Source: Eledone cirrhosa
Taxonomy: Eukaryota
Assembly: GCA_964016885.1 (NCBI GenBank)
Contig: CAXHJY010001182.1
Coordinates: 1-38,904, forward strand
Direction of reading: 5' to 3'
DNA length: 38,904 nt
Positions 3,077-27,603 of the stretch are shown here, in pieces. The number at the start of each line of letters is the position of its first letter. The first letter of the stretch is position 1. Below the pieces are notes generated by a model. It was not told the origin of the DNA. It did no database searches and saw nothing but the letters and a program-made list of their open reading frames with translations. Both the position numbers and the translations under genes were made by a program.

Positions 3077-3117
3077 GTACAATATTAAATAAATGGAAAA
3101 CTATATTTATAAAACCA

Positions 3118-3192
3118 TATTTATTTCATTATATATATTTCGGGGATATCATATTAACAATATGCTATGCCTTCATCAGACAAAATACAATA
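3118..3192 (-). ncRNA. Type I hammerhead ribozyme motif (PLE terminal repeat)
   Basis: Reverse complement of 6439-6513: CUGAUGA, stem II, GAAA, UAUAUA, UA, then the stem I partner. Confidence 0.75.
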
Positions 3193-4624
3193 TAAACAGT
3201 TTTATAGATAAATAGATTCGACATACCGTTATAACACCGACTTCATTTGAAGAGGTATACGCTGGCTGTGAAAAAATTTTTTACACAGAGAGAAAGAAAA
3301 AGAGAGAAAACAGAAAGAAAGACAGAAAACGAAGAAAAGGAAGAAAAGAAGAGAAAGAGGAAATGCATGGAAACAAAATAGAGAGATGGAAAGATAGATA
3401 AAGCGAAGAACTTCATGTAAAGAAACAGAAAGAGATATATATATATAGAGAGAGATGAAATAGAGATAGATACATATATATATATAGAAAATTAGGTAGT
3501 GGGAGGTCATTTTGAGTAAATGTATCAATGATACGTTTATTTATTTATTTATTTATTTAGCTCAAGTATTAATGTAAGGGAGATATATAGAGAGAGAAAA
3601 AAATATAGAGAGAGGAAAAAAATAGCGAGAGAAAAAAAATTTAAAAATAGCCAGATATATTCGAGGCATAAAACCCCTATGTTTTAATGTATTAGTATTT
3701 ATAAAACTTACACTATATTGTAAATATCAGTATTCCTGAATGAGACAAGTATCTATAATGTGTGAAAATTAATTATCTTATGTTTAGTTTTAAAAAAAAT
3801 TCATGTTTATGTGACAGCTACAAACATCCATGCGAATCCAACTGAATCAGTCTGCAAACTCTAAGTTCACGGAAAACATTCTCAATGTGGTATAAAAATT
3901 TGAGTATACAAATATGTGTATTATTATTCCTGTCATTGCTCTACAAGATTATCTATCAAGCAGAAGTAGAGAGCAGATTTCAATATACTAATAAAAATAT
4001 ATATCAAACAAAACTAAAAATAAAAAGATATCAATAATAATAATAAGTAAAATATAGAATAGAAAACTAAAAAAATTAAAAAATATTACGAAAGAATATT
4101 ACATAATAAAAATATTATATATTAAACATACTACGTATTAAAAAATATTACGTATTAAAAATTTACATATTAAAGATATTAAAAATACAAAAATAAAAAA
4201 TATTATAGAATACTACAATAATAAAAATTAAAATAAAAATAACAATAAAAAATAAAAATACACCACAAAGATCAACCCTTCAAAGTTAATTGACAATATA
4301 TTGTCAAGTTCTTTACAAGACAAAGCCAAAAATGATCTATCAAATCACATCTAGCAAAGATCATTTCAAAAAGATTATGATGTCCAATTATGTCTATATA
4401 TGTTCTTATATTTAATATAGAAGTTTATCTAGTGTAAGGTTTATTCAAAAAATTTGGAGCATCAGCTTTTAGGGTAGCTTAATTTTTCATGAGGAATGTT
4501 TAGATAAAAATAAAATAAAAATAAATAAACAATAAAAAAGAGAGTAAAAAGAAGGAATCAAAGATTTAGGAATCAAAAATTTATCGGCTAGTTTCCCATA
4601 TAAATATAAATCAAACTAAATATA

Positions 4625-5407
4625 CTACATTTTAAATTTAAATTTATATTTAAACGTTGAGTTTAATCTATGTTTGCAACAACTGAATAAATTTGTCCGT
4701 AGGTTAAGGGAATTTTTAGATTTTAGTATAAAGAATATCTCCTCTGCGCAGAGGTCACATGTCTCAGAGGATGAATTAAAAGGAATCCCTCTTGAGACTA
4801 TATTCCAAGCCGTCGAATATCTAACGTTATCTAGCTTAAGTTGCCAGAGTACGCCTGATAGTGCCGTTGAAGATTTTTTACTTGGATCTGTGAAAGAATT
4901 CTTGTGGTTATTATAGCGAAGTTTAAATTCCGTCGATGTGGAACCGACGTAGTTAAAAGAATTAGAGTCAGTATTAACATTACAATTGTATACTATATTT
5001 TTAACTAAGCAGTTGTTATTTAACGGACATTTAGATCTATCTCTACAGTTACATTTGTTACCTTGTATATTATTTATGCTATTATCATTAGGTTTTAAGT
5101 TCCTATTATTTATTCTATTAATATTTTGTGCTAAATTTTTGGTGGATGAGTAAGTTAATTTAATTGTATGCCTATTGAAAATTGAGTGATACCTATGTGT
5201 TCTAGGGAAGCGATTATCAAGAGCTTTGAAAAATAATTTAGCGATGTGGGTTTTAATGTTTAGTGAGAAAGGGGGAGCAAACCAAATTATGTTCCTAGTT
5301 CTATTTCTTTTTTGTCCTTTGGAATTATTGTAATGCTTTCTATTATAGTTGTTAATGTTGTTGCCGTAATTAAAAAAGTTGTTACTTTGTTTAGTTTGTC
5401 TATCATT
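4625..5407 (-). pseudogene. C-terminal fragment of the PLE ORF (linker plus GIY-YIG endonuclease), 5'-truncated
   Basis: 783 bp, colinear with 13644-14426 and ending at the same TAG. Some differences between the copies are synonymous (AAC/AAT, TGT/TGC). Confidence 0.9.
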
Positions 5408-6438
5408 TAATTTTTATTATTGTAGTATTCTATAATATTTTTTATTTTTGTATTTTTAATATCTTTAATATGTAAATTTTTAATACGTAATATTTTTTAA
5501 TACGTAGTATGTTTAATATATAATATTTTTATTATGTAATATTCTTTCGTAATATTTTTTAATTTTTTTAGTTTTCTATTCTATATTTTACTTATTATTA
5601 TTATTGATATCTTTTTATTTTTAGTTTTGTTTGATATATATTTTTATTAGTATATTGAAATCTGCTCTCTACTTCTGCTTGATAGATAATCTTGTAGAGC
5701 AATGACAGGAATAATAATACACATATTTGTATACTCAAATTTTTATACCACATTGAGAATGTTTTCCGTGAACTTAGAGTTTGCAGACTGATTCAGTTGG
5801 ATTCGCATGGATGTTTGTAGCTGTCACATAAACATGAATTTTTTTTAAAACTAAACATAAGATAATTAATTTTCACACATTATAGATACTTGTCTCATTC
5901 AGGAATACTGATATTTACAATATAGTGTAAGTTTTATAAATACTAATTACATTAAAACATAGGGTTTTTACGCCTCGAATATATCTGGCTATTTTTAAAT
6001 TTTTTTTCTCTCGCTATTTTTTTCCTCTCTCTATATTTTTTTCTCTCTCTATATATCTCCCTTACATTAATACTTGAGCTAAATAAATAAATAAATAAAT
6101 AAACGTATCATTGATACATTTACTCAAAATGACCTCCCACTACCTAATTTTCTATATATATATATGTATCTATCTCTATTTCATCTCTCTCTATATATAT
6201 ATATCTCTTTCTGTTTCTTTACATGAAGTTCTTCGCTTTATCTATCTTTCCATCTCTCTATTTTGTTTCCATGCATTTCCTCTTTCTCTTCTTTTTCTTC
6301 GTTTTCTGTCTTTCTTTCTGTTCTCTCTCTTTTTCTTTCTCTCTGTGTAAAAAATTTTTTCACAGCCAGCGTAAACCTCTTCAAATGAAGTCGGTGTTAT
6401 AACGGTATGTCGAATCTATTTATCTATAAAACTGTTTA

Positions 6439-6513
6439 TATTGTATTTTGTCTGATGAAGGCATAGCATATTGTTAATATGATATCCCCGAAATATATAT
6501 AATGAAATAAATA
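6439..6513 (+). ncRNA. Type I hammerhead ribozyme motif with minimal palindromic stem III
   Basis: Stem I UAUU(G)UAUUUUGU pairs with AUGAAAUAAAUA. CUGAUGA at 6452-6458. Stem II contains CAUAUU-GUU-AAUAUG with an A.C mismatch at its base. GAAA at 6490-6493. Predicted cut after AUA at 6501. Confidence 0.75.
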
Positions 6514-6640
6514 TGGTTTTATAAATATAGTTTTCCATTTATTTAATATTGTAAATATACTCCAAATATTTGTCGAGTGCTTTTATACCAGTTATAAATA
6601 TTTACTAGTTGTAACCCAACAATTTTAAATATAACTTTCC

Positions 6641-26431: not shown

Positions 26432-26528
26432 AGGTTAACTTTGCCTTTCATCCTTACAGGGTCAATAAAATAAAGTACCAGTAATGTACTGGGTAATTGC
26501 TGGCCTTGTGCCAAAAGTAGAAACAATT
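26432..26528 (+). mobile_element. SINE fragment with Nin/Deu-like central domain
   Basis: GCCTTTCATCCTTACAGGGTCAATAAAATAAAGTACCAG. A close reverse-complement copy lies at 35277-35360. Confidence 0.6.
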
Positions 26529-26773
26529 ATATATATATATATATATATATATATATATATATATATATATCAGTCACTAATTAACTGGAGCCTCTGATCT
26601 CCAGATGGTCCAGGGGTTTTGACATATGCTCTTGTACACTATCTAGTATACCAACACTAGGGAGGTTGTCTTTGGCACAGCTGAATAGTCTTCCACACCC
26701 TTCATGGGGAAGTTTTCTATGCCCATCATATCACTTTACAGAATGTACTGAATGAGTTTATTATATAATTGTT

Positions 26774-26868
26774 AAACTCAGCGGGATTTGAATTCAGAAT
26801 GGCAAGGGCCATAACTCTATGCATCAAATCATGGCGTCCGACCCTCTACCGATACTGCCAAGTTCACC
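26774..26868 (-). mobile_element. Decayed tRNA-like SINE head
   Basis: Minus strand carries an A-box-like TGGCAGTATCGG and a B-box-like GAATTCAAATCC. Confidence 0.45.
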
Positions 26869-27203
26869 AATACTATTGAGAATGTCATGTCTGACACAAC
26901 TAAAGTGTCCTCTTGTCCATTTGGCATGGTTTCTACAGCAGTATGCCCTTCCCATTGCCAACCACCTTACAGGGTGTGCTAGGTGCATATATCATGGAAT
27001 TGGCACCAAATAAGTTGCCGTCATTGATTCCAACTGAAGATTCATCGCTAACACGTGATCATCCAACCTGGCTTGCCTCATAACGGACAGCTTGTCTAAC
27101 CCATGCTAGCATGGAAAATGGAAGTTAAACAGTGATGATGTGTGTATATATATATATATATATATATATATATATATATATATATATTTATTTAATATAG
27201 AAA

Positions 27204-27254
27204 GGCTTCTACAGGACTAGAACTGTTTCATTCGGGAGAAATCATCAGGAAGCC
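27204..27254 (-). ncRNA. Type I hammerhead ribozyme motif
   Basis: GGCUUC-CUGAUGA-UUUC-UCCC-GAAU-GAAACAG-UUCUAGUC-CUGUA-GAAGCC: 6-bp stem I, 4-bp stem III, GUA cleavage triplet, U.U at the base of stem II. Confidence 0.8.
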
Positions 27255-27300
27255 TTCCTGATGATTTCTCCCGAATGAAACAGTTCTAATCCTGTAGAAG
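27254..27300 (+). ncRNA. Type I hammerhead ribozyme motif (mirror copy, 4-bp stem I)
   Basis: CUUC-CUGAUGA (27258-27264)...GAAACAG...CUGUA-GAAG. Predicted cut after 27296. Confidence 0.75.
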
Positions 27301-27603
27301 CCTTTCTATATTAAATATCTATACTCTTCTTTATATTGAGTACCTTATTTACTGTGGTTACCCCCGATTGAGCCCAGGATAAATGTGGTTACCCCCGATT
27401 GAGCCCAGGATAAACTTATCTATATATATATAATATGTATTCTTTGATGGGTGTGGTAGACTACTGTTAACCACACAAAACCTATAGGTTTGTAGTAATA
27501 ATATGCTTTACTAAAGCATATATATATATTATTCTTTTACTCTTTTACCAGTCCCAGCCATCCGGCTGAGGCCTTGCTGGGCACCGCTCTGATATACATA
27601 TAT

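Follow-up and report, generated by a model that had tools for sequence, protein, structure and literature searches.

How does a retroelement come to lie in a genome as two copies of its own 3' end that face away from each other and stop at two different points? The question is raised by a 38,904-nucleotide stretch of Eledone cirrhosa DNA (assembly GCA_964016885.1, contig CAXHJY010001182.1, positions 1-38,904, forward strand; the whole stretch is called the window below), which contains four fold-back insertions of Penelope-like elements (PLEs) in runs of (TA)n. The origin of inverted, tailed PLE insertions is named as an open problem in PMC8557442 (this and the other papers given by PMC number are cited from the parts of their text available to us). 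The analysis described here indicates that head-to-head (TA)n insertions of three Hydra-clade PLE families, A, B and C, likely arise when the two target strands, once nicked, each prime on a single sense RNA molecule, at two fixed internal positions.

Each insertion in the window joins a short and a long end

All four insertions consist of head-to-head element 3' ends inside (TA)n, one a short end (S) and the other a long end (L). An earlier note made from the window's letters had placed TA-embedded fold-backs at 3077-6640, 12171-15035, 23115-23660 and 27189-27420, and both its coordinates and the asymmetric layout were borne out. Arm positions are counted from the predicted hammerhead ribozyme cut, which falls after 6501 in family A, 23627 in B and 27296 in C; arm limits were mapped on full-length relatives.

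In the first family A copy the S arm (3077..5405, minus strand; -2501 to about +55) is a 5'-truncated Hydra-clade PLE comprising the end of the open reading frame (ORF), the 3' untranslated region (UTR) and the pseudo-long terminal repeat (pLTR). A C-terminal ORF piece (4625..5413, minus strand) encodes the CxCX5C linker and GIY-YIG endonuclease, and a predicted type I hammerhead lies at approximately 3117..3193 (minus strand, core at 3179). The L arm (5406..6640, plus strand; -1104 to +139) holds 3' UTR, pLTR and a tail of ~85 nt. Within it are the putative transcription start of the family (6362, plus strand, at the 5' wall and extra-G site described below), a predicted type I hammerhead with a minimal palindromic helix III (6438..6514, plus strand), and the tail between the S and L start sites (6556..6640, plus strand), which is the 5' UTR of the next unit, the ATG coming ~60 nt further on in tandem copies. 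The second family A copy, from an older subfamily, has an S arm at 12171..14935 (minus strand; -3019 to about +55) with a 374-aa ORF piece at 13644-14768, and an L arm of 100 nt (14936..15035, plus strand; +38 to +139) that stopped near the S site and lacks the hammerhead, as had been noticed.

The family B insertion has its L arm on the minus strand (23115..23461; -226 to +116), with the pLTR, a tail of ~87 nt and a degenerate hammerhead core, and its S arm on the plus strand (23465..23660; -174 to about +29), with a hammerhead-like motif at 23582-23632 and a putative start site at 23582. In family C the S arm (27189..27254, minus strand; -45 to about +25) begins at hammerhead stem I, which is the 5' wall of the family, and the L arm (27251..27420, plus strand; -43 to about +92) contains a predicted hammerhead at 27252-27302. 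S-end positions are uncertain by a few bases because S ends fall in TA-like sequence. The claim that the L arm extends 85-100 nt beyond the S end holds for A and B, at ~85 nt, but not for C, where the family tail is only ~65-70 nt; the ~100 nt seen in the window's C copy is explained by a private 31-bp tandem duplication (27353-27414, plus strand).

Fixed ends and (TA)n targets across family copies

Exact end or core matches, which are lower bounds, numbered at least 1306 short and at least 1578 read-through for A, at least 24,019 for B and at least 1711 for C. For family A, the matches on contig C1 (0-230 Mb) were tabulated by coordinate, up to the 79th at the S end and the 100th that reads through; best-hit samples are biased to query shape and were left out of the arrangement counts, and the loci of one of them were included in the family A haplotype test below. 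By coordinates there were 51 divergent S+L pairs, three triples containing one, and no S/S pair. After the loci were read, every fold-back with both ends visible (91/91) was S+L, and such pairs held 70 of the 79 S ends and 75 of the 96 terminal L ends. The remainder comprised 7 solo S, 20 solo or duplicated L and 4 internal read-throughs; three loci were ambiguous (L131, a possible S/S; L156; L184), and an L/L pair called by coordinates (L185) was read as two solos. The first 30 family C matches represent 26 insertions, 18 of them S+L, 4 solo and 4 ambiguous, one of the last a possible S/S. Among 17 divergent pairs by coordinates in the first 100 family B matches, 14 were S+L, 2 L/L and 1 S/S, and one of the L/L pairs (L359) proved on reading to be a separate S+L insertion. 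Tabulating family copies thus showed fixed ends and pairs that are mainly divergent S+L, in line with what had been proposed from the window.

A further PLE family, the fourth to target (TA)n, has a GIY-YIG endonuclease of the CCHH type and a 57-nt tail and was encountered at L304:560-1412, L284, L073, L306 and L393. Six of the eight inverted pairs of this family found in flanks were S+L and two were incomplete.

L ends adjoined at least three TA units in 85 of 93 cases in A, 16 of 18 in B and 12 of 13 in C, against a background of 8.2% of positions in 20 arbitrary 10-kb genome stretches (200 kb). Because adjacency is so far above background, the association is not due to chance; enrichment, set beforehand as a test, was found in all three families. 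Of the eight family A exceptions, four read through internally into the ORF. The A copies are flanked by very long arrays derived from (TA)n, each of several kb (window 1-3076, 6641-12170, 15036-18392 and 28350-30610).

The two arms of an insertion probably derive from one RNA

At seven polymorphic sites in 84 family A insertions, 479 of 484 within-insertion arm comparisons agreed, whereas shuffled pairs mismatched in 42%. The arms also agree in how far upstream they extend. Many stop at a common upstream limit, or 5' wall (63 of 170 family A arm ends fall at -150 to -128), and both arms were within the wall in 40 insertions, both beyond it in 26 and mixed in 5 (odds ratio 260, p = 4e-14). This tabulation was made by hand on 85 A insertions, with 14 that have a tail-only arm set aside; the odds ratio is 65 when they are counted.

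One insertion, L410 (G000:C1:52.53 Mb), carries 64 rare A>G changes per arm over 318 A sites, and 61 are shared between the arms, with sense polarity. In each of the other loci among the 209, the arms have two rare A>G changes in common at most. In L411 (G000:C3:7.80 Mb) the arms share 3 of 3-4 such changes. In long arms A>G accounts for 158 of 178 rare changes in L410 and 79 of 89 in L411, the pattern expected if ADAR-edited RNA had been copied into DNA. Of the 26 long pairs, 13 have an S arm that exceeds the L arm in length; 13 L arms consist of the tail only.

5' walls and promoter motifs

Family B arms cluster at -38 to -50, and most C arms end at -34 to -45. The base preceding family A wall arms that adjoin (TA)n was G at 18 of 40 distinct sites, T at 16, A at 3 and C at 3, where the genomic base is C (a count by hand of 43 rows, from which 3 duplicates were dropped). 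At family B starts other than the wall, a preceding G was found at 1 of 47 sites (Fisher p = 8e-7 for the comparison with A). Other reverse transcriptases (RTs) are known to add a G when they reach the cap.

In family C a TATA box, TATAAATA, lies 30 nt before the wall with CCAAT further up, and the spacing is kept in a second subfamily. Family A has, at +28-32, what we take to be a match to the downstream promoter element (DPE) consensus. It also has a TCACT initiator-like motif, a motif named in PMC3846280, and Penelope itself has an internal promoter of the initiator (Inr)/DPE type (PMC2377424). We infer that the walls may correspond to capped RNA 5' ends, in which case the tiny fold-backs would be two run-off cDNAs.

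Four B arms at L321, L337 and L351 stop at -145, possibly a second start site or a stall. A run of ~17 C at the fold centre of a family C copy (L075) is probably an untemplated addition.

The three families are related Hydra-clade PLEs

The window insertions had been ascribed to three unrelated families, some of them tiny ribozyme-only derivatives, and neither description was upheld. A, B and C all carry Hydra-clade Penelope-like ORFs (41% amino acid identity for both A-B and A-C), and B and C copies elsewhere continue into ORFs and 3' UTRs. The A unit is 4.1 kb, with an intact 737-aa ORF in L181, and the B unit is 3.3 kb. In tandem copies of the window's own C subfamily the tail leads into an ORF, and a younger subfamily has a long open frame. 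RWR, DKT, YRDD and CxCX5C, read by motif, are present in the ORFs of all three, with DKG modified to DKT and with RWR rather than RWK as the N-terminal motif. An endonuclease without CCHH and with CxxC and CxH near its end was read by eye in family A; endonuclease-end features were scored in A only, the C ORF being visible up to the endonuclease start. Pfam gave no match for the family A ORF. The Hydra-clade placement is based on the motif marks and (TA)n targeting; by these, A, B and C are Hydra-clade PLE families. Since they share these marks and have ORFs that are 41% identical, they are related to each other, and neither B nor C consists of a ribozyme alone.

In all three families the tail is the 5' UTR of the next unit, with an ATG ~45-60 nt beyond the L end. 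Retrozymes are non-coding, head-to-tail tandem monomers, whereas B and C copies are head-to-head and reach ORF and UTR in other copies. A fold-back DNA transposon or miniature inverted-repeat transposable element (MITE) has a fixed inherited junction and symmetric ends, whereas here junctions vary from copy to copy and the ends are asymmetric. Family A is young: at 40 scored places, identity was 100% across 157 nt.

The ORF with a CCHH-type endonuclease that lies close to C copies is not C's own but that of a separate family, D. In the younger C subfamily (L376-L389), ORFs are long and open and the TATA-to-start spacing is conserved. A diverged C-like fold-back with a different stem II (L036 flank, L274:1090-1200) likely represents a further C subfamily.

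Hammerhead motifs

The core is canonical in 165 of 169 family A and 48 of 58 family C motifs, and three helices can be drawn in both families; the palindromic minimal helix III of A is as in the hammerheads of PMC4209133. The family B core, CAGAAGA, is non-canonical, with U4->A in 65 of 66 arms, and is more degenerate in the left arm of the window copy. A hammerhead-like motif in both arms of three of the insertions, as the earlier note had it, was recovered by manual folding, but the B core departs from the canonical one and none of the motifs has an Rfam match: Rfam returned no hammerhead at E<=10 in 22900-27600 or 6380-6600. In an Rfam search of the whole window, each of the 150 hits listed (of 279) was a microRNA model placed on TA repeats or on the palindrome of family C. 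The hammerhead calls therefore rest on manual folding. Free folding did not single out hammerheads or tails (z from +0.46 to -1.33), and a hairpin in the tail that may bracket S and L is a lead only. Variants in reads of a related run (40 of 62 rows) occupy loops and the free core position, and they convert an A-C and a G-U to A-U pairs. Arms read straight across the predicted cut site; the templates would therefore have been uncleaved, and the ends not set by ribozyme cleavage.

The U4->A change in the B motif (window 23582-23632) extends through the whole family, for which at least 24,019 end matches were counted. The long stem I of B uses sequence upstream of the putative start and would therefore be formable only in a 3' or read-through copy.

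A probable double-priming mechanism and its rivals

In the mechanism that we consider likely, transcription from a pLTR promoter would yield a capped RNA whose 5' end lies 46 nt (B, C) or 141 nt (A) upstream of the hammerhead cut, and the templates used would retain an uncleaved ribozyme. The GIY-YIG domain would nick both strands of (TA)n, and one 3'-OH would prime at S while its counterpart primes at L, which lies 57-87 nt further downstream. Most simply, S would be used before L and the first cDNA displaced by the second; as S would by then be covered, this order would explain the exclusivity. The two cDNA 3' ends would be joined by microhomology or a few filler bases and then filled in. 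Priming on the 5' pLTR copy would let both cDNAs run off the cap, giving a fold-back of 200-480 bp unable to transpose further, and priming on the 3' pLTR copy could make both arms long. Opposite-strand priming at (TA)n with two fixed start points, as had been suggested from the window, fits the census and matches in vitro data for another PLE (PMC11167929), and is to that extent not new.

Several observations weigh against this account. The census used exact matches to a pattern along a single contig, a sample in which young copies are favoured. The pairing rule is not absolute: solo arms with either end occur in A (7/79 S, 20/96 L), and two B exceptions stand after reading (L366, L/L; L364, S/S). 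The extra G is weak in B, with a preceding G at 4 of 26 sites at -46 against 1 of 47 at other starts (p = 0.051; 73 sites counted by hand from the first 100 of 1192 rows), and the control for the extra G in A comes from B, not A. Start sites, caps and cleavage are deduced from DNA only. Stalling of L arms on the S-primed hybrid was considered and dropped, as L arms do not clearly stop early near S (8/85 at +28 to +71) more often than S arms stop early. In both edited insertions L is the longer arm, and alone they would also fit copy-back of the first cDNA; because of this, the case for one RNA copied twice needs the edits combined with the other line of evidence, the S arms that are longer than L and the tail-only L arms. 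An unsampled edited source locus or arm-to-arm conversion could also be the source of the shared changes.

The main rival is trimming, in which both arms start at L and the S end is made later by endonuclease cleavage or trimming at the AT-rich S site. It would also explain one S per insertion, the S end lies in TA-like sequence in all families, and PMC8557442 ascribes the tail to 'EN-mediated resolution'; we nevertheless regard it as unlikely, given that solo S arms exist and that PMC11167929, working on a different clade, maps both tail borders as RT starts in vitro. Self-priming, in which one cDNA or, as proposed in PMC3846280, an antisense template copies itself into the inverted arm, would account for junctions often having 1-12 nt of microhomology and arms often ending near the same point, and it predicts the shared edits of L410. 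It requires, however, that S be contained in L, and because S is often longer and some L arms are tail-only, it fails as the sole route and is largely refuted as such; the A>G polarity and extra G also point to a sense, capped template, and we consider it improbable. A protein dimer might instead carry two RNAs from the same source locus, each subunit using a different start site. The Poseidon protein is predicted to be a dimer (PMC11167929), and shared haplotypes are expected if one locus dominates expression, but this reading has little probability in view of the 61 of 64 rare edits shared in L410 and the use of the same pLTR copy by both arms in 66 of 71 insertions.

Two further readings concern what the fold-backs are. 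The short ones (C and the short copies of A and B) might be ribozyme-only, non-autonomous elements that transpose as units: most C copies are the same size and end at hammerhead stem I, and animal retrozymes have been proposed as PLE derivatives (10.64898/2026.07.22.740005). This reading is very improbable: fold centres differ per copy with no clade seen to share one private junction, 3 of 26 unbiased C insertions continue upstream into the 3' UTR and C tails reach a Hydra-type ORF, the C promoter motif lies outside the short copies, and the same wall class occurs in the plainly autonomous A and B. An assembly or long-read chimera artefact might be suspected from palindromes in a TA-rich small contig (C1209), yet the asymmetry is fixed, the arms differ and hundreds of loci lie on large contigs. 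Because fold centres vary between copies and contigs of an independent public run bridge the family C centre, the fold-backs are almost certainly not artefactual; raw reads also show S ends beside TA. These public runs derive from an organism or population that has diverged (best word share 0.46); read mapping on A skipped 6230-6360 as repeat, and the bridging evidence concerns the C fold centre.

If the double-priming mechanism is taken further, the standard insertion of an endonuclease (EN)-bearing PLE might be one capped RNA copied twice from staggered internal starts, with the second cDNA displacing the first, a generalization in which our confidence falls a little below even. If true, this rule would yield the inverted pLTR, the one-sided tail and thousands of tiny hairpins recording the transcription start, and would replace the antisense self-priming model. 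The families give specific predictions: the RNA start, and a pair of RT starts on one molecule, separated by 57-87 nt and each used by a different strand. Being young and having intact ORFs, family A is well suited to testing in vitro. The tiny hairpins should be annotated as PLE run-off stubs, not as MITEs, microRNA hairpins or retrozymes.

Other features of the window

An intact 1040-aa ORF at 18695-21817 (minus strand) encodes an AP (apurinic/apyrimidinic)-endonuclease and RT with a PHD finger (Pfam) and is, by reading, a long interspersed element (LINE) of RTE-like type. Related fragments, interrupted by TA runs, lie at 30957-32350 and 37759-38766. A repeat search of the whole window was dominated by TA.

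Comparison with known systems

In LINE-1 twin priming the second target strand primes on the same RNA and non-overlapping parts of the RNA are copied, whereas here both cDNAs copy the same segment. Retroviral strong-stop DNA is a short cDNA running off the capped 5' end; unlike it, the run-off product here would be integrated directly.

The three families resemble the Hydra-clade, C-terminal EN+ PLEs of PMC8557442, whose supplement includes a cephalopod member, in RW(K/R), DKT, CxCX5C, a GIY-YIG domain without CCHH, a predicted hammerhead and (TA)n targeting. They differ from that account in size (clade elements 'generally <3 kb'; here 4.1 kb in A and 3.3 kb in B), in tail length (30-40 bp for PLEs in general; here 65-87 nt) and in the U4->A core of B, where the clade hammerhead is canonical. 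The inverted copy, one-sided tail and microsatellite bias are already published, and the insertions are like those described in PMC8557442, PMC3846280 and PMC2377424 in having a head-to-head, 5'-truncated inverted copy, a tail at one end, microhomology junctions and Inr-like or TATA-like pLTR motifs. In those papers, as far as available, the inverted copy is frequent or optional; here it is the main form (70/79 A S ends) and near-strictly S+L. PMC3846280 proposes that self-priming takes place on a template that is antisense; the polarity of the edits and the extra G speak instead for a sense template with a cap. A literature search with thin coverage of subscription papers found, in the text available, no strict S+L census, extra-G signature or one-RNA evidence for PLEs. 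The fold-backs are thus ordinary in kind but bring useful new mechanistic constraints.

Like the minimal PLE hammerheads of PMC4209133, the predicted motifs are type I, with an unpaired base before helix II and, in A, a palindromic minimal helix III. Helix III in B and C is 4-5 bp, unlike those hammerheads, and the U4->A of B is not among the variants in the accessible part of that paper, which also reports dual hammerhead motifs 100-700 bp apart on opposite strands in Schistosoma. Poseidon of Anolis in vitro (PMC11167929) is alike in having two internal RT starts that bracket the tail, nicking and extension of both strands, and AT-rich targets; ribozyme cleavage is dispensable there. Its starts lie inside the ORF, whereas here they lie in the 5' UTR, ~50-60 nt or more ahead of the ATG. 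In the available text of that paper the start site did not differ between strands; here each strand of an insertion uses a site of its own.

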